Shown here piece by piece: positions 34,573 through 58,835 of a stretch of DNA of 64,000 bases. The DNA lies in contig OZ242029.1 of assembly GCA_965205015.1 (NCBI GenBank), positions 1,344,001 to 1,408,000 of the forward strand, given 5' to 3'. The first letter of the stretch is position 1. Every line of letters starts with the position of its first letter. Both the position numbers and the translations under genes were made by a program. The notes beneath the pieces are model-generated. The model ran no database searches, was not told where the DNA came from, and worked only from the letters and a program-made list of their open reading frames with translations. The DNA comes from Candidatus Poribacteria bacterium. Its GTDB lineage: Bacteria; Poribacteria; WGA-4E; WGA-3G.

Positions 34573-34842
34573 TTACCTTGCATCCTGTTCGTCTTTTCTG
34601 TAACGCGCCCCCAGAAAGCCGCCGAGTATATGCACAATCAATGTTGCGGGCCATAAGTAAACCATCGCGGTTTGCCAGTCCCAATGGAGGACAAAACGGC
34701 GTGCGACGATATTAATAACAATCGGTATGTAAAGGCATCTGCTCCACGGACGACTGAATCTCTTAAACCGTCCACGGTAAAATCCGAACGTGAAATGAAC
34801 CACAAAAGCCGCGAGGGAGATGAATAGGTTCAAATCATTCAT
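34573..34842 (-). CDS. Small membrane protein
   Basis: Three hydrophobic segments; ATGA overlap with the SCO gene. Confidence 0.7.
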   Translation of the reverse strand: MNDLNLFISLAAFVVHFTFGFYRGRFKRFSRPWSRCLYIPIVINIVARRFVLHWDWQTAMVYLWPATLIVHILGGFLGARYRKDEQDAR

Positions 34843-35477
34843 TTCTTAAGGAGTGCTTTGACATCTCGCCGCAAGCGTAGCAGTGCGGGTTTGCTCCGGC
34901 TATCGTAGTAGCCATAAATGTTCCCATCTGGCGCGACGAGAACGAATCTCGTGCTATGCAGGAGTTCAGTGCCGTTGTGTCCCGCCGCTAAACTGAAGCC
35001 GTTTTCGGCTAACGCGTAGATATCCGCTTTGTTCCCCGTAAGAAAGTGCCAACGTCTATCGTCAGCCCCATAAACCTTTGCGTAGCGTGAGAGGACGCTT
35101 GATGTATCCCGCTCCGGGTCGACCGAGAAAGAGACAAAATAGACCGGATCCGCAACGAATTCGGATTGAAGACGTGCCATCTCCTGCGTCATCGCCGGGC
35201 AAATCGTTGGGCAATTGGTGAAGATGAAGTCTGCGACCCAAATTTTGCCCTTCATGTCGGACAGTGTCAATGACTTCCCCTGTTGCGTTGTCAGACGAAA
35301 GTCTGGCACGCTGACAGCGGCACTTTTAGAGACCGGCATCTCCGATTTCGTATCAAATACCGACCACAAGTTGACACCCGCGATACCGATAATAATAACA
35401 CCGAGCACCACCCAGATGAGGGTGCTTTTATCGAGTTTTCGTTTAACGTTACCGGCAGCTTCGGTGTGTGTCTCCAT
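34839..35477 (-). CDS. SCO1/SenC family copper chaperone
   Basis: FTNCPTICP, DPERD, HS; N-terminal TM. Confidence 0.93.
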   Translation of the reverse strand: METHTEAAGNVKRKLDKSTLIWVVLGVIIIGIAGVNLWSVFDTKSEMPVSKSAAVSVPDFRLTTQQGKSLTLSDMKGKIWVADFIFTNCPTICPAMTQEMARLQSEFVADPVYFVSFSVDPERDTSSVLSRYAKVYGADDRRWHFLTGNKADIYALAENGFSLAAGHNGTELLHSTRFVLVAPDGNIYGYYDSRSKPALLRLRRDVKALLKK

Positions 35478-35518
35478 ATCCAGTCACCACATCGTAGGGG
35501 CGAGGCTCCCTCGCCCGA

Positions 35519-35860
35519 CTAATGAGCCGAGGTATCAACGACTTCCGCCGGTTTTTCTATGCCTTCATGCCGATCATCTGACGTGAGATCCGGCATCAGC
35601 ATGATGACGAGAAAAACGCAGATAAGGAAGGGGGTTACGACAATAGCTGCCAACGTCTTCCTTTCAAATTTCAGATGCATGAAATAATTCGCAACTAAGA
35701 TGGCCTTAGCACACGCCAGTCCAATGAGCAGGATGGCTTTGACCACCGTTGGGAAATCCGGGATGACTACCAAAAGTTCAAGGACGGTCAGCCCGGCGAG
35801 CCACCAGAAAATATTCATGTATTTCGGATGCTCTTTGTGCCCATTTTGTGCCATTTTCAT
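35519..35860 (-). CDS. Cytochrome c oxidase subunit IV (CtaF-like)
   Basis: LTVLE, KA....YFMHLKFE. Confidence 0.88.
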   Translation of the reverse strand: MKMAQNGHKEHPKYMNIFWWLAGLTVLELLVVIPDFPTVVKAILLIGLACAKAILVANYFMHLKFERKTLAAIVVTPFLICVFLVIMLMPDLTSDDRHEGIEKPAEVVDTSAH

Positions 35861-35869
35861 GTCCTCCTA

Positions 35870-36520
35870 TTATAGTAGATAGATGAAGGTGAAGACCATA
35901 ATCCAAATAAGGTCAACGAAGTGCCAGTAGAGCCCGACAATTTCTACCTCATGGTTAAATTCGGCGGTATATCTGCCACGCAAGCCGTGTATCAAGATAA
36001 CAATGAGATAGATGACACCCCCGGTTACGTGCATCCCGTGGAAACCCGTGATGGCATAGAAAGTGGGACCAAAAAGCGTCGAGCCACTAATTGCTGCCCC
36101 CGATAACCCATGCTCAGGAATACTGGTAAGCGTCAATCCGTGGTGAATCAGATGATACCATTCATAAGCCTGTAGCCCAAGGAAGATGACACCTCCACCG
36201 ATCGTCAACCCAAGGAACATGCACATGCGTGAGACATTACCGTTCTGAATCGACTCCAATGCTTTTACCATTGTGACACTACTGCATATCAACAGAAATG
36301 TCATAAACGCCGTTAACTCAATGCCAAGAACCTCCGTTGGCGGCGCCCAACCGATTGCACCTGCCCCCGCTCGGATAGCGGCATAAGCCGCCAACAACGC
36401 GCCAAACGACATGGTATCCCCGACGAGGAAGATCCACATGCCGAGTTTACCAAGGCTGTCCGGCGTCAGCGAAGGTTCATATACATCTTCAGTGTGATCT
36501 AAAGTGGTAGTGTGTTCCAC
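35870..36520 (-). CDS. ctaE: Heme-copper oxidase subunit III (second copy)
   Basis: GMWIFL, TGFHGMHV, GLYWHFVD. Confidence 0.9.
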   Translation of the reverse strand: MEHTTTLDHTEDVYEPSLTPDSLGKLGMWIFLVGDTMSFGALLAAYAAIRAGAGAIGWAPPTEVLGIELTAFMTFLLICSSVTMVKALESIQNGNVSRMCMFLGLTIGGGVIFLGLQAYEWYHLIHHGLTLTSIPEHGLSGAAISGSTLFGPTFYAITGFHGMHVTGGVIYLIVILIHGLRGRYTAEFNHEVEIVGLYWHFVDLIWIMVFTFIYLL

Positions 36521-36624
36521 TACAGTTAACTCCTTATATTCGTTATCGGTTATCAGTTAAAGAAGGATTTGGAATTATCAGAATCCAGTTTTAAGTGTGT
36601 ACTGATAACTAACAACTATTTTGA

Positions 36625-36861
36625 TTAGATGGTTTCTTGATCCATCGGTTTCCTGTTTGCCCGTCGGTGATGCCAATAAACTGTGCCACCGATGAGACCG
36701 AAAACCGTAAACGGCATCGCCATCAGAAAAAGGATACTCCAATTAAAACCCTTATTGATAGGATCATCAAGTTCTTTACAGCCCGGACACGCCTCAAGAG
36801 ACATCGGTACGATGAACATAACGAGTATCAAGATAGATGCCCAGAAAAACAATGTATGCAT
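36625..36861 (-). CDS. Small membrane protein with ACPGCK motif
   Basis: Signal-like N-terminus, CxxC, one TM; AAAGGA RBS before ATG at 36861. Confidence 0.7.
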   Translation of the reverse strand: MHTLFFWASILILVMFIVPMSLEACPGCKELDDPINKGFNWSILFLMAMPFTVFGLIGGTVYWHHRRANRKPMDQETI

Positions 36862-36874
36862 TCTAACAATTCCT

Positions 36875-37426
36875 TTACGAGAGATATACCAAAACGTAGA
36901 GAATTGGCCAGAGCGCGACAACAAAAATCCAGTAGATCGTACAGGTATCAACACCGACGTAACGTTCAGCAGAGAAACGTCCTGCCAGTGCCATGCCAAA
37001 AACGATGAACAGCCAGATAACAGCACTCAGCACATGGACGGCATGGCATCCGATGAGTACATAAAAGATACCGCCATACACCCCAGACTGGAGCGTCAGT
37101 CCGTTGCGAATCAGCTGCACCCATTCGCTTCCCTGCACGCCGAGGAAGAGTAACCCAAGCCCGCCCGTAATCAGTAGCCAATTGCGGAGTTGCTTCACAT
37201 GGTCCCTCTGAATTGCGCGGTGTGCTTGAAACATCGTGTAGCCGCTCAATAGAAGCAGTGCCGTGTTGATACCCGTTACCGCACGTGGGAGTTCAATCCC
37301 GAGATGCGACGGCGGGGGCCAGGTGACATTCCCGACTCGAAATACGAGAAACGTCCCGATGAGACCTGCAAACAGCATTGTCTCAGCACCGAGCAGGACT
37401 AATATAGCCAATCGTGCGTTGCTCAT
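36875..37426 (-). CDS. Heme-copper oxidase subunit III (first copy, divergent)
   Basis: ETMLFAGL, NTALLLLSG, GCHAVHV, YWIFV. Confidence 0.88.
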   Translation of the reverse strand: MSNARLAILVLLGAETMLFAGLIGTFLVFRVGNVTWPPPSHLGIELPRAVTGINTALLLLSGYTMFQAHRAIQRDHVKQLRNWLLITGGLGLLFLGVQGSEWVQLIRNGLTLQSGVYGGIFYVLIGCHAVHVLSAVIWLFIVFGMALAGRFSAERYVGVDTCTIYWIFVVALWPILYVLVYLS

Positions 37427-37460: not shown

Positions 37461-37706
37461 TCACGTATTTCGAGTGATCCGAAGAACGATCTCAGCGACT
37501 GCCGCGATAACCAGTAGTAAACCGATGACCCCTAAAACCGGTGTGCCGATACCTCGCACAACTTTTTCAACGAGCGGATGCGTTTTGCTGCCTGTAACAA
37601 TTGCTGTCGTTGCGATGATAAACAATCCCGCAAACAGCAGACACAGGATAATACCGAGGCGACGATTTCGTTTGCGATGTTCTGGGGCATTCATCTGTGC
37701 CATCAT
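37461..37706 (-). CDS. Small two-TM hypothetical protein
   Basis: Two hydrophobic helices; overlaps DUF805 stop. Confidence 0.55.
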   Translation of the reverse strand: MMAQMNAPEHRKRNRRLGIILCLLFAGLFIIATTAIVTGSKTHPLVEKVVRGIGTPVLGVIGLLLVIAAVAEIVLRITRNT

Positions 37707-38068
37707 CCACGCCCCCTATTTCTCACAACTCTGTATTTCAATGGATCGGGCCCAAAGCGGTTTCGACCGTAAGTTCCGCTGCGACACCCTAATTCAATCA
37801 CTATCCAGAAGATACCAATACCCGTAAACTCAATGAGTATCCACCACCCTGATCTGTCCCGATCGTGAAAGCGTTTCGTACTTGTAGCCCAGTGTGCCAA
37901 ACCAAGACAGAGCGTGCAAAAACTATAAACTCCAGACTCTCCCGCATCAAGAAGCGCAGCACTCCCGTGAACGATAAAACCGACACCGAATATCAGCAAC
38001 TGTGTCAGCCACCATTTCTCCCGATTAATCCGACCGCTGAACGAGAACAGGAGTTCAAATAGTGCCAT
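37703..38068 (-). CDS. DUF805 family membrane protein
   Basis: FSFSGRINR, KRFHDRDRSGWW, NRFGPDP. Confidence 0.9.
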   Translation of the reverse strand: MALFELLFSFSGRINREKWWLTQLLIFGVGFIVHGSAALLDAGESGVYSFCTLCLGLAHWATSTKRFHDRDRSGWWILIEFTGIGIFWIVIELGCRSGTYGRNRFGPDPLKYRVVRNRGRG

Positions 38069-38095: not shown

Positions 38096-39022
38096 CTAAA
38101 CCTTGTCCAACGCCATCGTGACAAATACCAACGGCAGATAGAGCAGCGAGGCGTATAACAGATAGCGTGCGGCTTTCACGGAGCGTGTGCGTGCTAAATA
38201 GATACCAATCGCCAGAAACCCTACGCCTGATAGCAATGCTGTGAAGAAATAGACGCTACCGGCAATGGTGTATAACGTCGGTAACAAACCTATTCCGAGG
38301 AGTGCGACGCAGTTAACCACAATTTGACGACACGTACTCGTCCCATCTGGGTGAATGACCGGTAACAAACGGAACCCCGCTTTTGCGTAGTCTTCGCGAT
38401 AGATGTAGGCGATTGCGAGAGAGTGCGGTATCTGCCACAAAAAGAGGATCGTAAATAGCACCCACGCCTCGCCCGTTAGCGAACCCCGTGCGGCAACCCA
38501 TCCGACGACAGGCGGAAGTGCTCCCGGCACTGCCCCGATAAGTGTACACAGCGAGGTTTTCCGCTTGAGCGGTGTATAGAGAAAGAGATAACTCACGACT
38601 ATCAGCGAAATGACAAAACCACTCAGTACATTGACGATAAACGTCAGGTAAAGCATCCCGCTGCCCGTGAGGACAGCACCGACAAGAAGTGCCGTCAGCG
38701 GATTCATCCTACCACCGGGGAGTGGTCTCTCCTGTGTCCGCATCATCTGTGCGTCTACATCGCGCTCAAGATATTGGTTGAGCCCCAAGACCCCTGCCGC
38801 GGTCAACCCTGCACCAAGAAGTGTATGCAGGCATTGGAGCCAATCTACGGTTTGTTGTGCGCCGAGATAGAAACCCGCGGCGGTCGTAATGAGTATCATC
38901 ACCACCAATCTCGGCTTGACGAGTTCGATAAAGTCAGCGGCGCGATGCGCAAAAACCGTCGACTTTGACGGTGGATTCGCCGTATCTGTATTGTCTGGTA
39001 ACGTTACCGTTGTTGAACGCAT
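38096..39022 (-). CDS. ctaB: Protoheme IX farnesyltransferase (heme o synthase)
   Basis: KPR, NQYLERDVD..M.RT..RPLP, YTPLKR, WQIPH. Confidence 0.95.
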   Translation of the reverse strand: MRSTTVTLPDNTDTANPPSKSTVFAHRAADFIELVKPRLVVMILITTAAGFYLGAQQTVDWLQCLHTLLGAGLTAAGVLGLNQYLERDVDAQMMRTQERPLPGGRMNPLTALLVGAVLTGSGMLYLTFIVNVLSGFVISLIVVSYLFLYTPLKRKTSLCTLIGAVPGALPPVVGWVAARGSLTGEAWVLFTILFLWQIPHSLAIAYIYREDYAKAGFRLLPVIHPDGTSTCRQIVVNCVALLGIGLLPTLYTIAGSVYFFTALLSGVGFLAIGIYLARTRSVKAARYLLYASLLYLPLVFVTMALDKV

Positions 39023-39185
39023 CTTTTAATTATACCTTGCCGATAAATAACGTCCATTTGAATTTTGATATTTTTCGCTTTCGAGTCGCCTGCGTGTTTT
39101 TGCTTGGGGGTTTCTGCGTATTGTTGCAGGCTACGTTTTTGAGACTCATATTTACGCAGAGATACACCTCATCCTAATACCCATC

Positions 39186-40118
39186 TTATTCTGTGAGCAG
39201 GGTATCACTCGCGGGTGTACCGACAACTACCGATGCATCTGTGAATCGGTAGACTCTTAAGGTAAGCACAAAACTGCTCACCAGCATGAGTGCCCCGACT
39301 GCGACATGTGCAGTCGTGATTGTGACCGTGAGGGCGGTTGCGAACGTTTCTCCGAGGGCGGTAAGCTTGGCGAAAAACGCGCCAGTGCCGAGCATCAACT
39401 GAATCACAAGCAAACCCAGCAACACCATAGGCATCGCTTGCCCAATCCGCTGTGCGTCCCCATTCACCCCAAGAACACGCCTTGCCAATAAAAAGATATG
39501 CAACGCAACCAAGAAAGCAAAGAGAAGATGTGCGTCAAGTCTACTACCGGTATGTCGCAAAATCGCGCCAAAAATGAGCTGCACATACAAGAGACAGGTC
39601 GTAATCAGGCTTAACCGGCGTAACTTTTGGGCTGACTCAATCGCAGGTCTCCCCTCATCTTGCCACCAATCGCGAGAGGTAAACCAAGCGATCCCACAAA
39701 GCAGGGCAAAGAACGCTTGTGCGAGGCATGCATGCACTATTGCGAAGTTGCGATTAATCTGTGTGACCCGAAGCCCCCCGAGAACCCCTTGGACAATGAC
39801 AGCGACCAGCGCAGCAAGCCCAAGCCATTTCAGCCATTTGCGTGAATCTCTTACCAAAAGTAAAATAAAGAGACCGACTGTCAAAAGTCCTACGAGGGAC
39901 CCCATAAGCCGATGACTATGTTCGTATAGAATGCCGCCTACCATCTCCGAGAGTGGATAGAGAAACATATTATACCCAAAGGTCGTCGGCCAATCAGGCA
40001 CTGCTAACCCGGATTCTGTACTTGTGACAATCCCACCGATGACAATCAACAAGAACGTCGCGCCTGCTGTGAGGCGTGCCATTCTGTGAAGCCACGGGCT
40101 ATACGCGTGTTGTTCCAT
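39186..40118 (-). CDS. ctaA: Heme a synthase COX15/CtaA family
   Basis: SGLAVPDWP, EHSHR, QGVLGG, conserved His. Confidence 0.9.
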   Translation of the reverse strand: MEQHAYSPWLHRMARLTAGATFLLIVIGGIVTSTESGLAVPDWPTTFGYNMFLYPLSEMVGGILYEHSHRLMGSLVGLLTVGLFILLLVRDSRKWLKWLGLAALVAVIVQGVLGGLRVTQINRNFAIVHACLAQAFFALLCGIAWFTSRDWWQDEGRPAIESAQKLRRLSLITTCLLYVQLIFGAILRHTGSRLDAHLLFAFLVALHIFLLARRVLGVNGDAQRIGQAMPMVLLGLLVIQLMLGTGAFFAKLTALGETFATALTVTITTAHVAVGALMLVSSFVLTLRVYRFTDASVVVGTPASDTLLTE

Positions 40119-40238: not shown

Positions 40239-42062
40239 TTAGTCACCGCTTGTCGCGGGCGCGTGCTCAGGCTGCGCTTGCGGTGTCCAATCATCTTCTT
40301 CACCCGGAACACTATATTCATAGGGACCCCGGTAGACAGTCGGAATTTGACCGAAATTGCCGTGTGGTACCGGTGTCGGTGCCTCCCACTCCAAGGTATT
40401 CACCTGCCACGGATTCTGTTCGGCAACCTTTCCTCGGTACATGCTCCAGAAGAAGTTAAAGACCAATATCAACTGTGCAAACCCAAGGGTAAACGCACTC
40501 ATCGTGATAAAGATGTTCATGCCTTCGAACGTTTGCAGAAATTCATACTGCATCGGGTTGGAGATACGCCGCATGTGTCCACCCACGCCGAGAATATGCA
40601 TCGGGAAGAAGGTACAGTTGAAGGCAACGAAGGTCAGCCAAAAATGAATTTGGGACAGTACATCGTTCATATAGCGTCCGTACATTTTTGGGAACCAGAA
40701 GATAATGCCCCCGAAAATAGCGAACAGACTTCCGCCGAACACCACATAGTGAATATGTGCGACAATGTAGTAGGTATCGTGGATGAAGATGTCCACCGGC
40801 GTATTTGCCATATAGATACCGCTCAACCCGCCAATTACAAACATTGAGACGAAGGCGATACCGTGGAGCATCGGTGTCGTGAATTTGATCGCACCTCGGA
40901 ACATTGTGCCGAGCCAGTTAAATGTCTTGATGGCTGATGGCACCGCGATGAGCATCGTTGTCGTCATAAACACAGAACCGAGCCCGGGGCGCATTCCACT
41001 TTGGAACATGTGGTGTCCCCAAACGATCCATCCCAAAAACGCGATGGCGATCATAGCATAGACCATGGAACGATATCCGAAGATCGGTTTCCGTGAAAAG
41101 ACGGCGATCAATTCAGAAGCGATACCCATGCCCGGCAAGATGAGGATATAGACCTCAGGGTGTCCGAAGAACCAGAAGAGGTGCTGCCACAAGAGCGGGT
41201 CGCCGCCGCCTTCTGCCGTTGCAGAAAAGAACGTCGTTCCCGCAAGCCTATCAAAGATGAGGAGTGCGAGTGCGGAGGACAGTACCGGGAAAGCGAGTAG
41301 CAACAGGATCGCGACGATGAAAAGCGACCAGATGACCAACGGGAGTCGGAAGAACGTCATTCCGGGTGCGCGCATATTGATAATCGTCGTGATGTAGTTA
41401 ATAGACCCGACCAGTGAGGAGAACCCTTGAATGAGCAGACTAATCGCCCAGAGATTTTGCCCCCAGTCAACGCCTGTCCACTGTGCATCGGAGGAGAGGG
41501 GTGCGTAGCCTGTCCATCCTGCTGCGGCGTGTCCGCCGGGTACAAAGAAGCCGACGACCATAATAATTGCGGCAAGGACAGCCAACCAAAAGGAGAGCAT
41601 ATTGAGAACAGGAAACGCCATATCCCGTGTCCCAATCATCAACGGAATCAGGAAATTTCCGAAAGCCCCCACCAAGATCGGAACCACGACGAAGAACACC
41701 ATAATGGTGGCATGCATCGTAAACAGCATATTGTAAAATGCGGGTTCGACGACGCCATTGGGCATGTTTACCTCAAGCCATTCCTCTTTCTCGGACTCAT
41801 AAATTCGTTCCCACATCCTGTCAGCACCGGTAGTGACTTCACCTTCATCCAGGTACTGCTGCGATGCCCCGATAATGGGTAGCGGTTTTTCGGGGTAGGC
41901 GAGTTGCCATCTAAAGAGGAGTGCGAGCCCGCCACCGAGGAAAAACATAATCAGTCCATAGATAAGGAACTGCTTACCAATCGTCTTGTGGTCGAGCGAA
42001 AAGATATATTTACTAATAAAACTTTCTTCGTGATGATGTGACGCATGTTCGTTATCGTGCAT
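40239..42062 (-). CDS. ctaD: Cytochrome c oxidase subunit I, A1 type
   Basis: GHPEVY, WGHH, AHIHY, D-channel D (RDMAFP), K-channel K (SAIK). Confidence 0.97.
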   Translation of the reverse strand: MHDNEHASHHHEESFISKYIFSLDHKTIGKQFLIYGLIMFFLGGGLALLFRWQLAYPEKPLPIIGASQQYLDEGEVTTGADRMWERIYESEKEEWLEVNMPNGVVEPAFYNMLFTMHATIMVFFVVVPILVGAFGNFLIPLMIGTRDMAFPVLNMLSFWLAVLAAIIMVVGFFVPGGHAAAGWTGYAPLSSDAQWTGVDWGQNLWAISLLIQGFSSLVGSINYITTIINMRAPGMTFFRLPLVIWSLFIVAILLLLAFPVLSSALALLIFDRLAGTTFFSATAEGGGDPLLWQHLFWFFGHPEVYILILPGMGIASELIAVFSRKPIFGYRSMVYAMIAIAFLGWIVWGHHMFQSGMRPGLGSVFMTTTMLIAVPSAIKTFNWLGTMFRGAIKFTTPMLHGIAFVSMFVIGGLSGIYMANTPVDIFIHDTYYIVAHIHYVVFGGSLFAIFGGIIFWFPKMYGRYMNDVLSQIHFWLTFVAFNCTFFPMHILGVGGHMRRISNPMQYEFLQTFEGMNIFITMSAFTLGFAQLILVFNFFWSMYRGKVAEQNPWQVNTLEWEAPTPVPHGNFGQIPTVYRGPYEYSVPGEEDDWTPQAQPEHAPATSGD

Positions 42063-42077: not shown

Positions 42078-42740
42078 TTACTGCCATCTTTCTTGCACCC
42101 AGGCATCATAATTTTCTCGCGTATGCACATTGAGGTACCCGAGCATTCCGGAGTGTCCAAATCCACACAACTCAGCGCACGGAATCTCATAACGACCTGC
42201 TTTTGTTGCCTCGAACCAGACGTTGATAAATCGGTTAGGCAAGGCATCCTGTTTCAGTCGCAATTGTGGCACAAAAAAGCTGTGGATGACATCCTCAGCG
42301 GTTAATCGGATATGCACGACCGCGTTGATCGGCACATGCAATTCGTTTTCTAATTTCAGATCATCATCTGTCCCGAACTCGTTATCGGGTCCGGGGTAGG
42401 TCATATCCCAGTTAAACTGTTTTCCACTGACCTGGACGACGACCTCCGGGTTTTCAGGAAATTGTGTCGGCGACTTAATATTATTCCACTGCGGGTAACT
42501 GAGCATCGCGAGTCCGAAGACGATCACCGTTGTAGCGGCGGTCCAGACAATTTCCAGCGTCGTGCTCCCTTCAATGTAGTCCGCCCTTTTCCCTTCCTGA
42601 TGGCGATACTTAATCAGGAAAACGATAAGGGTTCCCATCACAAGGATGAACACAACAAGGGTAAGATAATAAATACCGTAAAAGAGGTTATCAACGCTTT
42701 GCCCGAACGTTGATACGTTCTCTGGGAGCCATTGAAGCAT
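42078..42740 (-). CDS. ctaC: Cytochrome c oxidase subunit II (CuA, no fused heme c)
   Basis: DVIHSF, CAELCGFGHSGM. Confidence 0.96.
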   Translation of the reverse strand: MLQWLPENVSTFGQSVDNLFYGIYYLTLVVFILVMGTLIVFLIKYRHQEGKRADYIEGSTTLEIVWTAATTVIVFGLAMLSYPQWNNIKSPTQFPENPEVVVQVSGKQFNWDMTYPGPDNEFGTDDDLKLENELHVPINAVVHIRLTAEDVIHSFFVPQLRLKQDALPNRFINVWFEATKAGRYEIPCAELCGFGHSGMLGYLNVHTRENYDAWVQERWQ

Positions 42741-49896: not shown

Positions 49897-49980
49897 CCTT
49901 GCGGTTAAATGACGTGGGTTTGGACCTTAGCGTGCCACTCTTAAATCCGCGCTCCATTCCATTACGAGCGACGCACTTTG
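49897..49980 (-). repeat. ~80-bp CCGCAAGG element (copies at 38-121, 49897-49980, 56405-56490)
   Basis: CCTTGCGG and CTCCATT(A/C)CATTACG blocks at conserved spacing (starts 55-57 bp apart). Confidence 0.8.
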
Positions 49981-49994: not shown

Positions 49995-51893
49995 TTAGTC
50001 ATCACCTTCAGCAGTAACAGCCGCTTCAGCGATAGCTGCTTTCTCTTCCTTCTTCTTTTCGCCCCACAAACCGAGCCAGAAGATAAATCCGACGAGCGCG
50101 AAGAAGATTACCATGATGATTGCCACCATATTCACTGCTTCACTGAGAAGCGGCGTAAATGCATCGGCAGACGTATCCTGCATGACACCGAAAATATGCC
50201 ATGCCTCTCGAAGTCCGGAGCGTGCGTATCCCATCAGTCCCATCAAGGAAGTGAACGTAATTGCAACAAGAATTAACACGTATTGGGAGCGGTCTGTCAT
50301 CTCCCCCCATTTGATAGTGCCAGACGTTGTCGCCTTGCGGTACATGAAAATATCAACGATTGTAACGACTGCCATCACGGCGAGCGCAATTAGGACCTGA
50401 TAAGGCGTAAGGATATTGACCCGCAAATCTGTCGGAACACTGAACCCGACGATACCGATAACCACGATTGAGACGGTCGCGAGGAAAAAGACCGCAGAGA
50501 TACCAATGTTACCAACCTTTTTCCAACGTGCCGTAGGTATTTTGCCTGAACGCCGATAAAATAGGAAGCTCAAGAAAGTCGTGAGAATGATGATATTAAC
50601 CGCCGTATTTTTAGCAGTCATCAAGCCGAACAAGCCGAGGTGTGGGTGGTTTGCACCGCCCATCGCGCTCAGTTCACTGGCAGTTGAAATCTTAGAGAGC
50701 GTCCGCGGGGTCATCCAGATTGCGACACAAATAACGATAACCGTAATCATATACGGACGGTATCGTGCATAGATCTCCGCCCCCTCAATCCGTCCCATGC
50801 CTGACCAGAGGTAGTAGTTCGCGCCAATAAACAGGACACCAATCATCACCGCCTGAATGATAAATAACCAAGAGAACAGGCTACCCATCATGTTAATGCC
50901 CATTGTGTTGTTGAACATGTAGATTTCTCTACCGAGCCAATACCCCAAGAAAGGCAGCGGTATCAGTCCACAGAGTGCGATGAAGTTTCCAGTATAGCCC
51001 ATCCAATCGTAGTGCGCTTTGTCCTCTTTGGTCTTCGCGACGAGGAATCGGAACGCTGCGTATGCGGCGACAATCGAGCCTCCGAAGGCAATGTTCCCGA
51101 CGAGGCGATGGATATTAACAGGCATCCACGTAAAATTGTTGACGGCATCCCAAACGGTTCCCATGAACTCGCCTGTTGTCTCATTGTGGAGCGGCACCAT
51201 CGTATGGCTTGTGACACCTTCCATAGCGGTCTCAGGCGTGAGTGCTGGATCTGCAGCCAATTTCTCCTCAATCCAAGATTTTCGTCTCCCTTCAGAGAGC
51301 ACGCCGTATTGGGTTGCGGGACTGGTTTGGTAGCTCAACCATGCGTTAGAAACGAACATAATCGCAGTACCGAATACATTCAGAAGCACGCCGAGGAAGA
51401 GATGCCATCCTTTATGGCGTCCCTGCATCTTATCCCATCCGTAGGAGTACAGGTAAAGCGTAAAGGTTTCGCCGAAGAAGAGGATGACGTAAAAAATCAT
51501 CGTCGGTCCGAATATCCCACTGAGCTTTGTCATGACTTTGGGATAACACCAGATGAGGATGAAGACGAGGACTCCCCCGAGCAAGGCTGTCGTTGAAAAC
51601 GCGCCCATACAGAGTTTAATAAACTCTTGCGCCATGCGATCATACCGCATGTCCTTCGTCTTCCAACCGATAAATTCGATGATAACGGCGAACATCGGGA
51701 CGCCGAGAATAAAAGATCCGAATAACAGATGGAGTTGCGCAGCGATCCAGGCGGCGTTTCGGCTGCCGATCTTCGGGAAGTTACGATATTCAGCCTCGGT
51801 TACGTCCTGTGCAAATACCGGTGCAACGAATACCAAAAACGCATAAGCAAGGAGGACACAGCCAAGGATAAGATAGAGTCTCTTTTTAGACAT
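49995..51893 (-). CDS. Cytochrome bd-superfamily (CydA-like) oxidase subunit, probably of the cytochrome c-oxidising/Nitrospira-like type
   Basis: QLHLLF, FFGET, NIHRL, MGYARSGLR; about 14 hydrophobic segments; no QPxKxAAxE quinol motif; no cydB nearby. Confidence 0.8.
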   Translation of the reverse strand: MSKKRLYLILGCVLLAYAFLVFVAPVFAQDVTEAEYRNFPKIGSRNAAWIAAQLHLLFGSFILGVPMFAVIIEFIGWKTKDMRYDRMAQEFIKLCMGAFSTTALLGGVLVFILIWCYPKVMTKLSGIFGPTMIFYVILFFGETFTLYLYSYGWDKMQGRHKGWHLFLGVLLNVFGTAIMFVSNAWLSYQTSPATQYGVLSEGRRKSWIEEKLAADPALTPETAMEGVTSHTMVPLHNETTGEFMGTVWDAVNNFTWMPVNIHRLVGNIAFGGSIVAAYAAFRFLVAKTKEDKAHYDWMGYTGNFIALCGLIPLPFLGYWLGREIYMFNNTMGINMMGSLFSWLFIIQAVMIGVLFIGANYYLWSGMGRIEGAEIYARYRPYMITVIVICVAIWMTPRTLSKISTASELSAMGGANHPHLGLFGLMTAKNTAVNIIILTTFLSFLFYRRSGKIPTARWKKVGNIGISAVFFLATVSIVVIGIVGFSVPTDLRVNILTPYQVLIALAVMAVVTIVDIFMYRKATTSGTIKWGEMTDRSQYVLILVAITFTSLMGLMGYARSGLREAWHIFGVMQDTSADAFTPLLSEAVNMVAIIMVIFFALVGFIFWLGLWGEKKKEEKAAIAEAAVTAEGDD

Positions 51894-51913: not shown

Positions 51914-52663
51914 TTATCTCGAGCGTTTCTTGAAGTCAGCACTCGTGAAGTTTACAGCAATATCGCCACTCGCTGGCACTTCAATGGTCTTGTTTGCTGA
52001 ACCGAGTTCTTCATGCCATGCGACGACACGCACTTTACCCGCTGGCACATCAGCGATCGAATAACCGCCTGTATCCGCGGATTTTTCATAGTCATCTGAA
52101 CTGATCCATGTGCCATCAGCATTTTTGTAACCCGTAACCGTGAAAAAGTTGTTAGGAACAGCGACGACGTACCCCGTCATCCACGTGTGGATATCGCACG
52201 TGAACTTAATTTCTTCAACCTTGGCGACTTTGTGTGGAAGGACTATGCCGGACTTCGGAATCTGATAGTTTATCGCGTCATTTTTTTTCGCGTGAGAGCG
52301 AACGTTATGCGCAACCGGATCACTGGAGGTAATATCAACAGTAGAGCCAGCAACGACTGCGAGGACGTGCGGGTAGTAAGCACATGCCTTCTGGTCCATC
52401 ACTGGATTCTTATCCGGGACGACAGGTTTCGCCCCACGAACACGGGCATAAATGACGACGTTTTTAAGACCTTTGCCCTTTGAGACAACGAGTGCCTCGG
52501 ATTTTGTGCCTGCTACAGCGTCAATGCAATGCTGATCTTTAGTAGCCGTTAAGGCGGGACGCGCAGGTGCATCGCCTTCATAGGTTACGGTGCCGGTGAT
52601 GGTCCCTGCGAACGCAGCACTTGCAAGCATCGTGCTAACAAGCAGGGCGACGAAAACTTTCAT
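51914..52663 (-). CDS. Secreted cupredoxin-like / carboxypeptidase-regulatory-like domain protein (paralog of 44856-45638)
   Basis: Signal peptide; HNVR...CDIHTWM. Confidence 0.75.
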   Translation of the reverse strand: MKVFVALLVSTMLASAAFAGTITGTVTYEGDAPARPALTATKDQHCIDAVAGTKSEALVVSKGKGLKNVVIYARVRGAKPVVPDKNPVMDQKACAYYPHVLAVVAGSTVDITSSDPVAHNVRSHAKKNDAINYQIPKSGIVLPHKVAKVEEIKFTCDIHTWMTGYVVAVPNNFFTVTGYKNADGTWISSDDYEKSADTGGYSIADVPAGKVRVVAWHEELGSANKTIEVPASGDIAVNFTSADFKKRSR

Positions 52664-52785
52664 AATTTGGTTTCTCCTTATATGTTTTAAATTACCTCTA
52701 ATATATTAACACCCCAATGTTTTAGGATGCAAATAAATAGACCTAAAAATTCAAATTAATTTTTCCTAAAGGCTCCCTTTACAAA

Positions 52786-53142
52786 TTAAGGACGAAACAT
52801 TTCCTTAATATAGGCGAGTAGCTCCCGTTGTTCCGCATCATTGAGGTAATAGTGGAACGCCGGCATATCGTCCTTTCCAGCATTGATGCTATCCAGCAAT
52901 TGTTCATCACTGTGCATCTCCCAGAGGCTGTTGTCCGTCAGGTCTGCGGGATCCAACCTTTTGAAACGTCCGATCCGTCCGTTGCCTTCTCCATTGTTTC
53001 CATGGCACCCTGCGCAATACCGAGCGTATTTGTATTCGACCTCTGACTGATACTTCGTACTCGGGTCAACCTGCTTAGCCAACCAGATTAAGCCGTTGAG
53101 CCATACCATAATCATGACGATAACGACCACAAGGTGTTTCAT
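52786..53142 (-). CDS. Small monoheme class I cytochrome c
   Basis: N-terminal TM; CAGCH; DMPAF. Confidence 0.88.
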   Translation of the reverse strand: MKHLVVVIVMIMVWLNGLIWLAKQVDPSTKYQSEVEYKYARYCAGCHGNNGEGNGRIGRFKRLDPADLTDNSLWEMHSDEQLLDSINAGKDDMPAFHYYLNDAEQRELLAYIKEMFRP

Positions 53143-53268: not shown

Positions 53269-56200
53269 TTAGCGTCCTAAGGAGATGAGGTAATCTCGGA
53301 CGAGTCGAATCTGTTTTTCAGCGTCATTGCCAGCGTAACCATCGAGTGGCATATGTTGTCCACCAATCAGCGGCCATGCTTGCGGCATCGCTGTTCCGGG
53401 CTGGAACGCCTGCGGATCCTTCATCCAATCAATAAGCCAATCCGCCTTGAGTCGCTCCTTCGCCAACGCAAGATCTGGTCGTCCCGCCTTGTCACTCCCT
53501 TCAGGAATAATTTCACCCTGCGAAGGGTGACAAGAGATACACTGAAGTGCATCAAAAATCTGCTTACCGACTCGTAATTCAGCACGCGTCGGCATTGGGG
53601 TCTCAAGCGTTTCATACGGGAACGGTTCATCGTCAAGCGCGGAGAAGTATTTGACCAGCGTTGTCGCTTCGTCATCAGATAATCCGAATGTCGGCATCCG
53701 TACCTTGAGTCCGTATCGGATGTCTGAGGGTTCTTTGAGGAATGTAAATAACCAGTCTGGATAAACCCTTGCGCCCTCTGCTTTCAAGGGTGGCGGCGCC
53801 ACTTGCTTGGCAACCATCTCACTTAACCCTTCGTGTGCGATGATAACCTCCTCATAATCGCCGCCCGCGCCTTCAATCACATGGCATCCGGTGCAGTTAT
53901 ATTTTTTGATCAATCGTCTACCCGCATCAATGTCGTTTAGTTTCTCGGATCGGTTATGGATATAACTCAGCGGATACTGCTCGGGTTGGAAACTCTTCAA
54001 CAGCACGGCGATCGCTCTCGCATCTTCATCGCTCATCTGGAAGACCGGCATCCGAGAAACAATCCGGCGGGTTTGATACCGTCGTGGATTGGTAACTTTA
54101 CCGACCGTCCATCCCGTCCAACTGTGTTCAATGCCCACGGTGTCGCCAAAGTCAAGTTCATCCGCTAATTTCGCGCCGAACTCGCCGAGATCCGCACCGA
54201 CCTTTGACTCATTTTCGAAACCGGGAATCTCATGACACCCGAAACATCCGTAAGTCCTGACGAGTGCTTCACCTTCCGCGACATCCACTTCACCGATGGA
54301 GTCGGTAGCTACGTTTGTCGTGGCTTGTTGCATACTCATCAGATAGGCGACGACGTTGTCGAGTTCGCGGGTACTTAACCGCAAACTCGGCATACTCGTA
54401 TCTGGGTCGTATGCCTTTGGATCATTAATCCACTGTCGGAGATAACTCGCTGTAACCTTTGTGCCAACACTATCGAGTGCCGGGGCAAAATCACTCCCCA
54501 AACCCTCAACAGCATGACATGTGAGGCAGCCAACGGTCTTGACGGTTTCCTCGCCTGCCTTAATAGCCCTTTCAGATGTGGAATAATTGGAACTGGATGC
54601 ATCTAAGTCCGCATCATTCATTGCGGCAAGGTAAGCCGAGATAGATTTCACTTCATCAACAATGCGGAGGACATAACTGTCGGGGTAAGGATACTCTGTG
54701 CCATCGTCTGTTTTAATGACAATGCCATTGTCTGTTTCGGTAACAACACCGGTGCGCTTTCCGCCGTTTTTGAGATAGACGACCTGCGTCATGCCATCAA
54801 CGGGGAAGAAATTCGGCATTGTCGTATTTTCGAGGTAGGCTTCGGGTTTCTTAATCCAACTTTCAAGCCACGCAGTATCTTTCACCTTACTGCCGACTTT
54901 CGCAAGCGATGGACCGACTTTGGCGAGGGTATCGAGGGCACTATACCCCTCAACAGCGTGACATCCGTGGCATCCAAGGTCTTCAAAGAGTGCCAAGCCC
55001 TTCGTTAAATTCGGGGCATAGTCCTGCGGTTCATCCGTTTCGGGGTTCACACCGTAATCTAACATCATCACGCCATCATGGCAGCGGCGGCAGTTAGATT
55101 CCATATAGCCTTTCGTTTCTTCGGACGTTCTACCGGTATGCTCATCTAATCCGAGTACAGGCGTGAGCCAGTATTCAGCATGCGTCAAGGCGTGAGCGGC
55201 TTTCGCTGTGAGTGCCTGTCCCTGCCCACCGTGGCACGGCGTACACCCAAATTTATCAACTGGGTGCTTATCAAGAAGGACATCACGGTGTGGGTGCGTT
55301 TGAAGGACGGAACGATAGCCGGTTTCATAAGAAATCTCAACTTCACCGAAGACATCCACGTCACTGAAGGTAAGCGTACCGTTTTCCTCTAATGTATATT
55401 CATCCGCTTCCGCTTCAAATCCATCAATGATCATATTCTCACTACCGACCTTGACGCTTGTGTGCTTGAGACGCTGCACAACAGGATTTTCGCCATCACC
55501 TTCCACCTCAAACACCTCTTGCGCGGATTGATCGTAACCGGTCTTATCAGCAGAGAAATGGCATGTAGCACACCTGTCTGCGGTATGATTGAAGTCTTCA
55601 AGATAGTATTGAACGATAGTTCGTGTTTCACGGAAAGGATTCTCTAATAGACTCCCCAAGAAGGTTCGCTTGATCCCCCCCACCGAATGCAATTTTTCTT
55701 CAAGGCGTGTAACTTCGTCGTGTTTTGCTTTGTCGGCTCGCAGTGATTGAAGGGAGGCTTCTGCGGCGGTGAGACCCGTTATAATTTCGGTATCTGTAGG
55801 ATTATATTTCTGGGCGATGAGGTAGGTACTCAGGGCACTTTGTGCGTCCCCAGTGGCTTGATAAAACTGCGCCAGAGCTATGTTCGCGTTTGCAAAGGTT
55901 GCTTCCGCTCCCAAAACGGCTTCGGTGAGTTCACCTTCAATTTGGGATTCAAAATCCGCTAACTTCTTCTGCCACTTGTCAACAGTCTCATTGTGTTTCC
56001 CCTTCGCTACGTGGAGGCTGTGCTGATATTTATAGTTAATAGCATCGGATTCGCTCTGTCGAAATTTGCGTTCCTGTAGTGCTTCATCTAAGGCGACCTG
56101 AGCGTCCCTGACCTCCTTCATTAACCGTGCGAGCTCCTTGGCATCAGGTTCTTGAGGCGTAGGAAGTTCAGGCAAAGCCAATTTTGCGTTCTCTAATTCC

Positions 56201-56379
56201 GCGTGTGTTTTTTCATATTCATATTGATAAAATTGCTGCTGGATCTGCTTCCAGGGGCGCCGAGTAATCATCTCATCCCAGAACCCCCATATCGTCACCA
56301 GTCCTAACAACCCGGATAGAATAAAGAACAAAGCAGAATACGACTTACTCTCAGCAGGAATTTCCTTTTTGCTCCTCAC
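53269..56379 (-). CDS. Membrane-anchored octaheme cytochrome c associated with the Rieske/cytochrome b complex
   Basis: Eight CxxCH (CATCH, CTPCH, CRRCH, CHGCH, CLTCH, CFGCH, CTGCH, CISCH); N-terminal TM and coiled-coil-like region. Confidence 0.9.
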   Translation of the reverse strand: MRSKKEIPAESKSYSALFFILSGLLGLVTIWGFWDEMITRRPWKQIQQQFYQYEYEKTHAELENAKLALPELPTPQEPDAKELARLMKEVRDAQVALDEALQERKFRQSESDAINYKYQHSLHVAKGKHNETVDKWQKKLADFESQIEGELTEAVLGAEATFANANIALAQFYQATGDAQSALSTYLIAQKYNPTDTEIITGLTAAEASLQSLRADKAKHDEVTRLEEKLHSVGGIKRTFLGSLLENPFRETRTIVQYYLEDFNHTADRCATCHFSADKTGYDQSAQEVFEVEGDGENPVVQRLKHTSVKVGSENMIIDGFEAEADEYTLEENGTLTFSDVDVFGEVEISYETGYRSVLQTHPHRDVLLDKHPVDKFGCTPCHGGQGQALTAKAAHALTHAEYWLTPVLGLDEHTGRTSEETKGYMESNCRRCHDGVMMLDYGVNPETDEPQDYAPNLTKGLALFEDLGCHGCHAVEGYSALDTLAKVGPSLAKVGSKVKDTAWLESWIKKPEAYLENTTMPNFFPVDGMTQVVYLKNGGKRTGVVTETDNGIVIKTDDGTEYPYPDSYVLRIVDEVKSISAYLAAMNDADLDASSSNYSTSERAIKAGEETVKTVGCLTCHAVEGLGSDFAPALDSVGTKVTASYLRQWINDPKAYDPDTSMPSLRLSTRELDNVVAYLMSMQQATTNVATDSIGEVDVAEGEALVRTYGCFGCHEIPGFENESKVGADLGEFGAKLADELDFGDTVGIEHSWTGWTVGKVTNPRRYQTRRIVSRMPVFQMSDEDARAIAVLLKSFQPEQYPLSYIHNRSEKLNDIDAGRRLIKKYNCTGCHVIEGAGGDYEEVIIAHEGLSEMVAKQVAPPPLKAEGARVYPDWLFTFLKEPSDIRYGLKVRMPTFGLSDDEATTLVKYFSALDDEPFPYETLETPMPTRAELRVGKQIFDALQCISCHPSQGEIIPEGSDKAGRPDLALAKERLKADWLIDWMKDPQAFQPGTAMPQAWPLIGGQHMPLDGYAGNDAEKQIRLVRDYLISLGR

Positions 56380-56514
56380 GAACTTTTCTCCCTCTTTTAT
56401 TTTACCTTGCGGTTCGGTCAGGTGGGTTGGACACTTTCAAGTGCCTCCCCGTAGATCCGCTCTCCATTACATTACGAGCTACAGGTTTTGCCGCCCGCCT
56501 TCCGATTGCTATTC

Positions 56515-57381
56515 TTAGATGTTGAACCACGGGGACACCCAGATGTATTTTACATTTAAAGCGACACGCAGTATCATTTTTATCGGCAATGCAAGCATCG
56601 TTAAGAACAGAAATGAAACAACGATATATCGGACAAGGCCGAGTTCCTGTAAGAAACGACTACTTTTACACTTCCACAAGTAGAAAATGGGACCGATCGC
56701 GAAATAGCCTGCGACCACCACGAACCCGAAATAGTTTGCAGTATCCGCGTCGCGGATGCCGAAAAGATACGACAAATTCACATTTGTCAGCGGAACGACG
56801 AGATGTGGATCCCACGCTTCCCATGGCGCGAAGAAGTTCCATCCGGGACCTCTGAGGAATGTCCCCACGACCATCAGAACGATCCATAAAATGATAAATC
56901 CGAAACAGAATACGGCGAGTGCGAACGGACGTTCTTTTACTGTGTAATACCCTTTCCCCTTGGGATTAATGTCAATATAGGGAATAGCAATCAAACCGGC
57001 GATGATCAACCCCGGGAGCACTACGCCTGCGATCCACGGATCGAAATAGACGAGCATCTCCTGCAGTGCGAGGAAATACCATGGTGCTTTAGAAGGGTTC
57101 GGTGTCTTCGTCGGATCGCTGGGTTCCTCGAGCGGGGCATCAATCATAATTGACCATACACCGAGCACGAGCATCACGATAATAGCGCAGATAAACTCAT
57201 TCCGACACAGATACGGCCACACGTACACCTTATCGTTCAGAGCGGCATCCGAAGGGGTACCTGTTTTGTCTGTCTGGCGCGCCTGCCGGTATGAAAGCCA
57301 GATGAAATAAGGTATCAAAAAGAGAATAGCAACAATGGGGACATTATCCGGCTTCGTCACCAGTGCTATAAAATGCTCCAT
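56515..57381 (-). CDS. Cytochrome b C-terminal subunit (subunit IV/PetD-like)
   Basis: VWPYL, APLEEP.DP..TPNPSKAPWYF, IPYID. Confidence 0.9.
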   Translation of the reverse strand: MEHFIALVTKPDNVPIVAILFLIPYFIWLSYRQARQTDKTGTPSDAALNDKVYVWPYLCRNEFICAIIVMLVLGVWSIMIDAPLEEPSDPTKTPNPSKAPWYFLALQEMLVYFDPWIAGVVLPGLIIAGLIAIPYIDINPKGKGYYTVKERPFALAVFCFGFIILWIVLMVVGTFLRGPGWNFFAPWEAWDPHLVVPLTNVNLSYLFGIRDADTANYFGFVVVAGYFAIGPIFYLWKCKSSRFLQELGLVRYIVVSFLFLTMLALPIKMILRVALNVKYIWVSPWFNI

Positions 57382-57459
57382 ATTCTTCTGCTCCTTTGAA
57401 GATTAGATTCCTCGTCCGTGCTGATCCCACCGACACAAAAGATCTGCTTCTACACGCCT

Positions 57460-58230
57460 CTATAGAGGTCCAGAGATACCACCATCTTTACGGACCCGCC
57501 AGAAATGCAAAGCCATCAGAACGCTTGCCAACAGCGGCACCGCAACGCAATGTAAAATATAGAACCTCAATAAAGTGGACGGACCAACGATGGTACCCGC
57601 CAGTAGTGCGAATCGGACATCGTTCGATTGTGTGATGTCTTGCGGGGCAAACGGACCTTCATGCCCCAGAACAGGTGTCGCCCGTGCCATGTTCGTCCCG
57701 ACAGTCACCGCCCAAAACGCCAATTGATCCCACGGCAAGAGATAACCCGTGAAGCTGAGGAAAAATGTCACGAGTAACAAGATGACCCCGACTGCCCAGT
57801 TGAATTCCCGAGGCTTCTTATAGGAACCCGTCAAGAACACCCTGAACATGTGGAGCATTACCGAGATCACCATTCCGTGTGCCGCCCAGCGGTGCATGTT
57901 CCGCAGGAGCATCCCGAACGGAATGTCAAATTCAAGGTACTGAACATCGTGGAAGGCGTATTCAGCTGTGGGTCGGTAATAGAACATCAGGAGTACGCCA
58001 GTGACGGCTGTCACGAGAAACATAAGGAAAGTGATCCCGCCCATACACCAAGTGAATCGGAAGTTCAGCGCGTGCCGAGAAATCCGGGGAGGATGGAGAT
58101 GCAGCCAGACGTTTTGGAGGACCTGTAAGGTATAACGGCGCCCGGTGTTTTCATACCCGTGGCGGAATATAGAGCGCCAAATGTCGGAATTCGTAATCTT
58201 TTCTTTGAGCCCTTTACGTTCTTCGTTCAT
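57460..58230 (-). CDS. petB: Cytochrome b6-like N-terminal subunit
   Basis: WCMGGIT, HRW...H, GYLLPWDQ, H-x14-H. Confidence 0.93.
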   Translation of the reverse strand: MNEERKGLKEKITNSDIWRSIFRHGYENTGRRYTLQVLQNVWLHLHPPRISRHALNFRFTWCMGGITFLMFLVTAVTGVLLMFYYRPTAEYAFHDVQYLEFDIPFGMLLRNMHRWAAHGMVISVMLHMFRVFLTGSYKKPREFNWAVGVILLLVTFFLSFTGYLLPWDQLAFWAVTVGTNMARATPVLGHEGPFAPQDITQSNDVRFALLAGTIVGPSTLLRFYILHCVAVPLLASVLMALHFWRVRKDGGISGPL

Positions 58231-58346
58231 ACGTTTTTTAGCAAGTTTCGACGTGTACGCTGCGATGTGGACTTCGAAGATTCGCTCTATAACGCCGAAA
58301 CGCCGTTTCTACCTGACGGGAGCCAGGCACAAATGCTCTCCTTTCT

Positions 58347-58835
58347 TCAAACCTTCAAAAAGGAGCCTGGGTCGGTCCACTGCCCCTTCTCACCTAAAAA
58401 CTTCACAGCCTTGTCGATTTCGATCTGACCATCTTCTGCCAATGTAATTTTAACACGTTCGAGCGGTCGCGGCGCAGGACCTTCGTAGTTAATGCCTTCC
58501 CGGTCAAAACCGCTACCGTGACAGGGGCACTTGAATTTGTTTTCAGAACCCAGCCAGCGCGGTGTGCAGCCGAGGTGTGTGCAAATCGTTAAGAGCGCGT
58601 AGAATTCACCGTCTTGCTTCCGGACAATCCAAACACCAAACGGCTCTTTTTTGAACTTTTCACTAACGCTGCCCGGTGGATATTCTGCTGGAAATCCTGC
58701 TTTAAAAACAGAGGAGGGTTCAAACAGCACGCGCGGATATAAATACCGAACCAATCCCGGGCCGAAGGTCAAGCCTAATGCTGCAACGAAATTCCCCCAG
58801 CCGAGAAATTTAAAAAACTTACGTCGAGATACCAC
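58347..58835 (-). CDS. petC: Rieske [2Fe-2S] subunit
   Basis: SRRKFF Tat-like motif; CTHLGC, CPCHGS, GPAPRPL. Confidence 0.95.
   Translation of the reverse strand: MVSRRKFFKFLGWGNFVAALGLTFGPGLVRYLYPRVLFEPSSVFKAGFPAEYPPGSVSEKFKKEPFGVWIVRKQDGEFYALLTICTHLGCTPRWLGSENKFKCPCHGSGFDREGINYEGPAPRPLERVKITLAEDGQIEIDKAVKFLGEKGQWTDPGSFLKV

Follow-up and report, generated by a model that had tools for sequence, protein, structure and literature searches.

The locus considered here raises the question of what a gene for a cytochrome bd-like protein is doing between a complete quinol-oxidizing complex and a complete aa3 oxidase when its usual partner, CydB, is missing. The locus lies in a 64,000-nucleotide stretch of Candidatus Poribacteria DNA (the window; contig OZ242029.1 of assembly GCA_965205015.1, positions 1,344,001 to 1,408,000), and all of its features, given below in window coordinates, are on the minus strand. 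An earlier note on this DNA, made from the sequence alone, described about 24 co-directional genes joining a Rieske/cytochrome b-octaheme complex, a CydB-less bd-like module and an aa3 oxidase; 25 minus-strand open reading frames (ORFs) are present from 58,835 down to 34,573, and CydB is absent among the 34 window proteins scanned against Pfam. The reading that we favor, with a probability of about 0.5, is that a shared heme/copper wire feeds both an O2-reducing bd-like site of the OR-N family and the aa3 oxidase.

Conservation was assessed in relatives of the window, using 120 genomes drawn from the phylum; most relatives are metagenome-assembled genomes. The CydA-like ORF, whose best named homologues are from Ca. 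Poribacteria, was found as a single copy in 107 of the 120. In 101 of these 107 it was accompanied by a cytochrome b gene upstream and a CoxII gene downstream, both within 20 kb and on its own contig and strand; in the remaining six one partner was located on another contig. The order from the Rieske gene to a zinc-finger gene was kept in all five chromosome-level genomes. The earlier note had held that its proposal would fall if the modules were unlinked in close relatives or the contig were chimeric; the modules are linked, and a chimeric contig was rejected on the gene order shared across relatives (101/107 and 5/5). The locus is thus a near-core feature of Poribacteria, not a chimera, and its GC content is even (0.48-0.52). 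A literature search, in which subscription journals were largely not covered, returned no description of the joined locus in Poribacteria, although the phylum counts of Murali et al. may list them; the available part of PMC8546597 mentions neither cytochromes nor oxidases.

The CydA-like protein (49,995 to 51,893) was characterized by Pfam, alignment, structural modeling and fold matching. Its match to Cyt_bd_oxida_I is partial (E 5.5e-17). The AlphaFold model (pLDDT 84.7) contains 14 long helices and best matches subunit I of bd oxidase (Z 24-26, root-mean-square deviation (rmsd) 3.2-4.0; VIA-align to 5doq_A, Z 25.8, rmsd 3.3 over 357 residues), with ActC of alternative complex III (ACIII) as the next-best fold (Z 15.2-17.7). 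His55 aligns with the Geobacillus His as the His19-type ligand, His262 is of the His186 type and Glu142 corresponds to the second channel Glu. Beyond the His186-type helix the CydA alignment ends and the model shows helices, consistent with absence of the Q-loop; the protein has no CxxCH site. The CydA fold, the His19-type ligand, the absent Q-loop and the ∼14 helices are OR-N traits, and the protein fits OR-N1/N2 as set out in the available part of Murali et al. (bioRxiv 10.1101/2021.01.16.426971).

The protein was also compared with Nitrospira-like (Nitrospirota) genomes, presumed to be such from a gene context resembling that of N. moscoviensis. The conserved residues described above, together with His164, His566 and four Met, are retained by all four of their paralogues, among them the one adjoining Rieske/cytochrome b. 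The window protein therefore has the same claim, strong or weak, to being an oxidase as NIDE0901. Identity is 44-45% to the Nitrospira-like copy beside Rieske/cytochrome b and 42% to bd-like_3 copies. The closest Nitrospira-type paralogue by identity is thus of the NIDE0901 type, and in a tree whose low backbone support leaves N1 and N2 unsplit, the window protein falls in a clade with Latescibacterota-type copies. In the parts available, PMC6606698 and PMC12342949 treat the bd-like protein adjoining Rieske/cytochrome b as a terminal oxidase, and PMC10839748 and PMC12342949 (Kop et al.) call the bd-like family uncharacterized. Nitrospira are reported to have no heme-copper oxidase (PMC6606698), and at least one bd-like complex should therefore reduce O2.

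Downstream of the CydA-like gene lie a membrane diheme cytochrome c (48,376 to 49,884; two CxxCH), a membrane monoheme cytochrome c (47,495 to 48,292; one CxxCH), both assigned by Pfam and by their order in relatives, and an “alternative NxrC” protein (45,777 to 47,492) that combines diheme cytochrome c with an EB_dh domain; these four genes are referred to here as the cassette. The earlier note had called the last of them NxrC-like, and the domain bears this out (PF09459; 7b04_C at E 4e-9). The ligands of NxrC/EbdC do not follow: in the ligand alignment the Met heme-b ligand of true NxrC-type proteins is missing, the Lys is either displaced or substituted, and alt-NxrC_2 proteins of the Nitrospira type show this loss as well. 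The diheme domain matches chain B of PDB entry 6h5l (E 3.7e-47), which we take to be Kuenenia Kustc0457. The neighbor of Kustc0457 is a cupredoxin, according to the available part of PMC12053348.

Two cupredoxin-like proteins flank the cassette, and both carry the type-1 copper pattern His...Cys-x2-His-x2-Met, in agreement with the earlier description. Cupredoxin 1 (51,914 to 52,663; His119, Cys156, His159, Met162) sits within an Ig-like domain, and cupredoxin 2 (44,856 to 45,638; His148, Cys187, His190, Met193) gives a model that superimposes on plastocyanin (Z 11.4, rmsd 1.8, 86 residues); the ESM Atlas returned only Ig-like domain names for it. In 16 sequences the His, Cys and His ligands are invariant and the Met is near-invariant. 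The cupredoxins are likely electron donors to CuA of the aa3 oxidase.

The quinol-oxidizing module that precedes the cassette consists of a Rieske [2Fe-2S] protein with a twin-Arg start (58,347 to 58,835; PF00355; CTHLGC and CPCHGSGF boxes), a cytochrome b6-type subunit (57,460 to 58,230), subunit IV of a split cytochrome b (56,515 to 57,381; PF00032; TIGR01156 weak), a membrane-anchored octaheme cytochrome c (53,269 to 56,379; eight CxxCH) and a small monoheme cytochrome c (52,786 to 53,142; one CxxCH, with a Pfam match). Pfam, profiles and ligand residues support the b6 assignment: b is split, the four His (His113/127 and His227/242) are in place, with 14 residues between the second pair, Cys62 occupies the heme ci position and the Rieske boxes are intact. 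The His spacing and the Cys at the heme ci position we take as marks of the b6 type. All 15 Poribacteria copies of the octaheme cytochrome carry eight hemes. With the three cassette cytochromes, the five proteins hold 14 CxxCH sites (8 + 1 + 2 + 1 + 2), the number first noted. A second Rieske/cytochrome b pair occurs elsewhere in many Poribacteria (for example L135:7402-9241 in G004).

Downstream of cupredoxin 2, the oxidase genes encode CoxII with a CuA motif and no fused cytochrome c (42,078 to 42,740) and an A1-type CoxI (40,239 to 42,062), followed by CtaA and CtaB (39,186 to 40,118 and 38,096 to 39,022, together 38,096 to 40,118), two CoxIII, CoxIV and a 78-residue membrane ORF (35,519 to 37,426; the small ORF at 36,625-36,861) and SCO1/SenC with an 89-residue membrane ORF (34,573 to 35,477). 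The GHPEVY Glu, the D- and K-channel residues, six His, CuA and CtaA/CtaB together identify an A1 heme-copper oxidase, as had been proposed with CtaA, CtaB and SCO; the score against TIGR02891 (623 bits) is slightly below the 671 cut-off. In all five chromosome-level Poribacteria this is the only full CoxI. Pfam matches over the locus comprise Rieske, Cytochrome_B, Cytochrom_B_C, Cyt_bd_oxida_I, EB_dh, COX2, COX1, COX15-CtaA, UbiA (CtaB), two COX3, COX4_pro and SCO1.

The locus had been regarded as a single cluster behind tandem sigma70 promoters. A consensus scan located both promoters upstream of the Rieske gene, a distal site matching 12/12 positions with an extended -10 (TG) (59,062 to 59,090; same site in 3/13 relatives) and a proximal site matching 11/12 (58,909 to 58,937); perfect 12/12 sites number 2 in the window compared with 0.06 in 100 shuffles. 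A third promoter-like site, with a TTG -35 and an extended -10 (52,703 to 52,732), lies before cupredoxin 1 and heads the block of cassette and aa3 genes. It is sub-threshold in the scanner and was recognized by alignment with palindrome-preceded promoters of relatives. In those relatives a perfect 16-bp palindrome, TCACGGATATCCGTGA, occurs upstream of the Rieske promoter (9/13) and again upstream of cupredoxin 1 (for example at G001:C1:4650244, G001:C1:4657280 and L003:8926). With at most one mismatch, it was found in 65 of 120 Poribacteria genomes, against 4 for a reversed control, and among the matches listed 29 of 33 genomes carry both sites. The palindrome stands 17-18 bp upstream of the TTG -35 in 14 of 17 sites, centered at about -61, and at about -71 in the other three; such spacing is characteristic of class I activators. 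Additional copies precede a 2[4Fe-4S] ferredoxin gene (L165-L167) and, in one genome, ATP synthase F0 genes (L170).

The palindrome is absent near either window promoter, allowing up to three mismatches, and from the closest relatives, yet the aligned internal promoter is retained in them and in the window. Scans upstream of the Rieske gene for FNR- and Rex-type consensus sites gave no conserved match, terminator scans stayed at chance level, and a literature search for the motif, again largely without subscription journals, found none described. Because a second promoter precedes the cassette and aa3 genes and the palindrome accompanies both promoters in relatives, the genes probably form two co-regulated units, one of which holds both the bd-like cassette and aa3; the linkage originally proposed holds, and the single unit gives way to the conserved internal promoter. 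Metatranscriptome contigs (four runs from three studies, at least 82% identity) cover 30/30 bins of the locus, and single contigs span cupredoxin 1 to CydA, monoheme to alternative NxrC and the 118-residue monoheme protein to cupredoxin 1. They hint at expression of these genes in relatives, although such contigs cannot prove one transcript and the comparison included no silent control stretch.

These observations can be accommodated by the following model, in which the locus would be the main aerobic respiratory locus of Poribacteria. The first unit, from the Rieske protein to the small monoheme cytochrome, would oxidize quinol by a Q-cycle and pass electrons to the periplasm, as expected from its family and ligands. 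In the second, which would start at cupredoxin 1, blue-copper proteins and membrane-bound c-type cytochromes would together make up a shared wire. One branch may lead to the CydA-like protein, acting, by analogy with its family, as a cytochrome c-fed O2 reductase at the His19-type heme site; the other may lead through a cupredoxin to CuA of aa3, whose CoxII carries no fused cytochrome c. The second branch is suggested by co-inheritance and by a genome in which the cassette gene was not found (G060): there, cupredoxin and aa3 genes come directly after Rieske-b6-octaheme, and a single gene (L134:4641-5843) encodes CoxIV together with a cupredoxin/Ig protein. Nitrite oxidation would have no part in the Poribacteria system.

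The cassette was compared across lineages in the best 80 of 605 genome loci, 64 of them outside Poribacteria. The order CydA-like, diheme/monoheme, monoheme, alternative NxrC was found in all 68 loci with at least 3 kb of downstream sequence, and the hosts include Acidobacteriota, Gemmatimonadota, Latescibacterota, Rhodothermales, Nitrospinae and an archaeon. Electron donors lie upstream wherever they are seen, namely the bc-octaheme genes in Poribacteria and ActA-ActB-ActE, directly upstream, in 29 of the 64 others; in the latter the CydA-like gene begins 775-1,104 bp from the end of ActB with ActE alone between, leaving no space for ActC. A short CoxII follows within 7.5 kb in 14/64. In the available part of PMC3578206, Lucker et al. 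regard the conservation of these genes as strong evidence that they take part in nitrite oxidation. An NxrA-type query, however, matched none of the 107 cassette-bearing Poribacteria (E≤1e-20; very distant enzymes could escape it); the 2 of 120 genomes that it did match belong to the 13 in which the cassette gene is lacking. In the five chromosome-level genomes the best TIGR03479 score was 66.7 bits, compared with 323.7 for the query, with no type II DMSO reductase near the cut-off. Of 101 Gemmatimonadota, 28 carry the cassette gene and none of these has an NxrA-type enzyme, the single NxrA occurring in a genome without the cassette. Since the cassette is present in genomes without nitrite oxidoreductase (NXR), nitrite oxidation cannot be its general role. 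Two distant Poribacteria in which the cassette gene was not found (L122:12032-19630 in G107 and L124:11754-19928 in G111) encode a periplasmic NxrA/B-type enzyme with a diheme NxrC-like subunit.

In Gemmatimonadota the cassette is tied to an oxidase. A short CoxII lies 5-6 kb downstream in 28/28 cassette genomes (one split), and this subtype was found at E≤1e-45 in 27/28 against 1/73 of the others; these genomes share ancestry and so do not count as independent events. Most of the 28 also have a second, longer CoxII. Here the cassette occupies the place that bc-octaheme holds before cupredoxin-aa3 in G060. In Acidobacteriota, a canonical ACIII-caa3 operon adjoins an ActABE-cassette operon (L149 in G008; L150-L151 in G006), forming respiratory islands of at least 40 kb.

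A wire serving two O2-reducing sites is favored because donors lie upstream of the cassette, no quinol site is known in it, its hosts are equipped with a complex III in any case and the physiology of Nitrospira calls for an oxidase within the family. Several observations weigh against it. Ser559 occupies the position of the Glu445-type heme ligand, Tyr135 that of the first proton-channel Glu, and CydB is absent from the locus by Pfam scan. These losses exclude canonical CydAB, on alignment grounds, but not OR-N, and with the Glu445-type ligand missing O2 reduction remains inferred; of the two terminal oxidases first proposed, aa3 stands, and for the bd-like protein, also without a Q-loop, the term is a family label only. 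No purified OR-N member is described in the literature searched. An NxrAB-type pair follows the cassette in one of the 64 non-Poribacteria loci, that of the archaeon (L044), and an AioA/IdrA-type enzyme with two diheme peroxidase-like genes follows it in L154. In the available part of PMC6423088, Table 1 places the same cassette order within the NXR cluster of the anaerobe Kuenenia, where it drops 5.2-fold once nitrite turnover stops. Finally, 79 of the 107 cassette genomes encode a canonical CydB elsewhere. This, together with the placement of cassette and aa3 behind one promoter, also fits poorly with the suggestion that the locus serves fluctuating O2, and the shared unit weakens the idea of O2-dependent switching between two oxidases.

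A possible but doubtful alternative is that the cassette is not an oxidase but a conduit from the quinone pool to the periplasm, standing in for complex III or ACIII with a quinol site other than the Q-loop. Its c hemes and cupredoxin would then deliver to whichever enzyme follows, aa3 here and NXR, periplasmic nitrate reductase or iodate/arsenite-type enzymes elsewhere, and Poribacteria would have two quinol-oxidizing entries into one aa3. Such a conduit explains the anaerobic and reductase-linked copies, the operons without ActC and the absent Glu ligand better than the shared wire does. Whatever lies downstream is in every case a terminal enzyme that faces the periplasm, ActABE without ActC precedes the cassette in 29/80 loci, ActC is the next-best fold after CydA, the cassette takes in Gemmatimonadota the place that bc-octaheme has before aa3 in G060, and the short CoxII is tied to the cassette (28/28 versus 1/73); Lucker et al. 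also raised this option in the available part of PMC3578206. Against it, no quinol-binding residues were identified, the genomes sharing these operons are not independent events, and some Nitrospira would be left without a high-potential oxidase. The hosts, moreover, possess a complex III besides the cassette: Poribacteria have Rieske/b6 at this very locus, 28/28 Gemmatimonadota have ActB elsewhere and 5/5 Acidobacteriota checked have NrfD-family genes. A predicted complex of the acidobacterial ActB Fe-S domain with its CydA-like neighbor scored 0.00, which is evidence neither way. Somewhat speculatively, the cassette might be a quinol:periplasm oxidoreductase of a third kind that is based on the bd fold; in Poribacteria and Gemmatimonadota it would make up a dedicated respiratory unit with cupredoxin and aa3, controlled by an undescribed activator that recognizes the palindrome near -61.

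It is quite unlikely that the cassette does both, coupling the downhill reduction of O2 to an exchange with the quinone pool that runs uphill or in parallel, as a bifurcating or reversible hub. Four near-invariant His and four Met leave room for more cofactors than in canonical CydA, the same core occurs in aerobes and anaerobes, and a dual role has been proposed for the TO_2 complex of Manganitrophus (bioRxiv 2021.11.15.468770); yet no structural evidence pointed to a second site, and reverse electron flow would be of little use to a heterotroph. A protective function, in which the CydA-like site, expressed together with aa3 as its guard, handles NO or peroxide or only scavenges O2, is improbable, because near-universal single-copy retention suits core respiration and no NO-forming or NXR partner was found tied to the locus in Poribacteria, despite the altered heme ligation, the presence in anaerobes and the peroxidase-type neighbors in L154.

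Set beside known systems, with the shared-wire reading retained, every module is of a described type, and the kinship to Nitrospira, Nitrospina and anammox modules suggested earlier is borne out in the available parts of PMC3578206 and PMC6606698. The same four genes in the same order, Rieske, split b6/subunit IV and octaheme c, form an operon in Nitrospina gracilis, Kuenenia and Methylomirabilis (PMC3578206, in part); unlike that operon, the window module is joined to the cassette and aa3 in one locus. With OR-N1/N2 and the NIDE0901-type “bd-like oxidase” the window protein shares the CydA fold, His19-type ligand, 14 helices, absent Q-loop and CydB and status as lone CydA in its operon, but it is single-copy, belongs to a lineage without NXR, groups with Latescibacterota-type copies and is predicted to be co-transcribed with aa3. 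The bd-like_3/TO_1/kustd1709-1712 clusters of Nitrospira, Manganitrophus and Kuenenia have the same order of CydA-like, diheme, monoheme and diheme alternative NxrC genes, with cupredoxin, zinc-finger and Usp genes nearby (PMC6606698, bioRxiv 2021.11.15.468770, PMC6423088 and PMC3578206, each in part); the Poribacteria cassette differs in its flanking bc-octaheme and aa3 genes and in the lack of NxrA. The N. moscoviensis CIII_1 region, a proposed III-IV supercomplex (PMC6606698), likewise places Rieske/cytochrome b beside a bd-like gene, c cytochromes and alternative NxrC, but that region holds two bd-like genes and Nitrospira lacks a heme-copper oxidase, whereas the window has one bd-like gene and a full aa3.

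Operons that unite a quinol-oxidizing module with an A-type oxidase, as the window does, are found as qcr-cta in Actinobacteria and act-cta in Flavobacterium and Rhodothermus; the window differs from them in the OR-N cassette and two cupredoxins between the modules. The present analysis adds to these descriptions the genome-scale counts that speak against an NXR link, the co-inheritance of the short CoxII with the cassette, the fusion of CoxIV to a cupredoxin and the palindrome at two promoters.

The conserved gene run also extends further than first described, past 34,573 to 26,012, adding three system genes: a Usp + PCP_red + rubredoxin-like protein with tandem Usp (32,650 to 34,542; 5/5 relatives), an Mrp/ApbC-type Fe-S carrier conserved in relatives (28,853 to 29,734) and a zinc-finger + PCP_red protein, the last conserved gene of the locus in the window (26,012 to 26,542). 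Likewise missing from the original gene list were an ABC-2 ATPase and permease (42,849 to 44,774; at this position in 5/5 chromosome-level relatives) and a DUF805 gene that appears to be a passenger (1/5 relatives), with an 81-residue membrane ORF (37,461 to 38,068). In three of the five chromosome-level genomes the cluster gains a radical-SAM gene of the NirJ2/AhbD type, below both cut-offs, which a CopD-like membrane gene precedes (L096:10388-12342; L098; L099) at the cluster end in those three and elsewhere in two. Within 10 kb of the cassette in the best 80 loci, Usp was found 42 times, Mrp 27, zinc-finger 27 and radical-SAM 28, counts that the shared PCP_red domain may slightly inflate. 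These genes may mature cofactors of the system.

The window also holds insertions and repeats. A BglII-like endonuclease and an N4/N6 methyltransferase (31,073-32,640) lie between Usp and Mrp, where 0/5 relatives have them, and two unrelated inserted ORFs (26,586-27,884), flanked by 30-48 bp direct repeats, lie between Mrp and the zinc-finger gene. A dispersed intergenic repeat (49,885-49,972 and 56,395-56,482) ends in a CCGCAAGG hairpin directly before start codons, with shorter copies at 34,540, 38,063 and 39,020; metatranscriptome contigs often break at it, and passenger genes of relatives often sit at such junctions. Elsewhere are three apparent tandem serine-hydrolase/beta-lactamase-like paralogues (14,738-18,676), a DDE transposase (8,044-9,225) and a putative TnpB-like ORF (19,975-20,970).

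Judging by its lineage, the window genome probably belongs to a heterotrophic sponge symbiont, as the earlier note proposed. For the main nitrite oxidizers, Nitrospira and Nitrospina, assignment of the terminal oxidase to the OR-N family has been by inference only. Its occurrence as a single-copy core locus in genomes without NXR, together with its tie to one aa3 subtype, sets the cassette apart from nitrite chemistry and narrows the question to two testable options, an oxidase or a stand-in for complex III. For purification, hosts with a single copy and one clear partner are preferable to Nitrospira, which has four paralogues, and the palindrome offers a way to reach a regulator of energy metabolism in a phylum that is abundant and uncultured.

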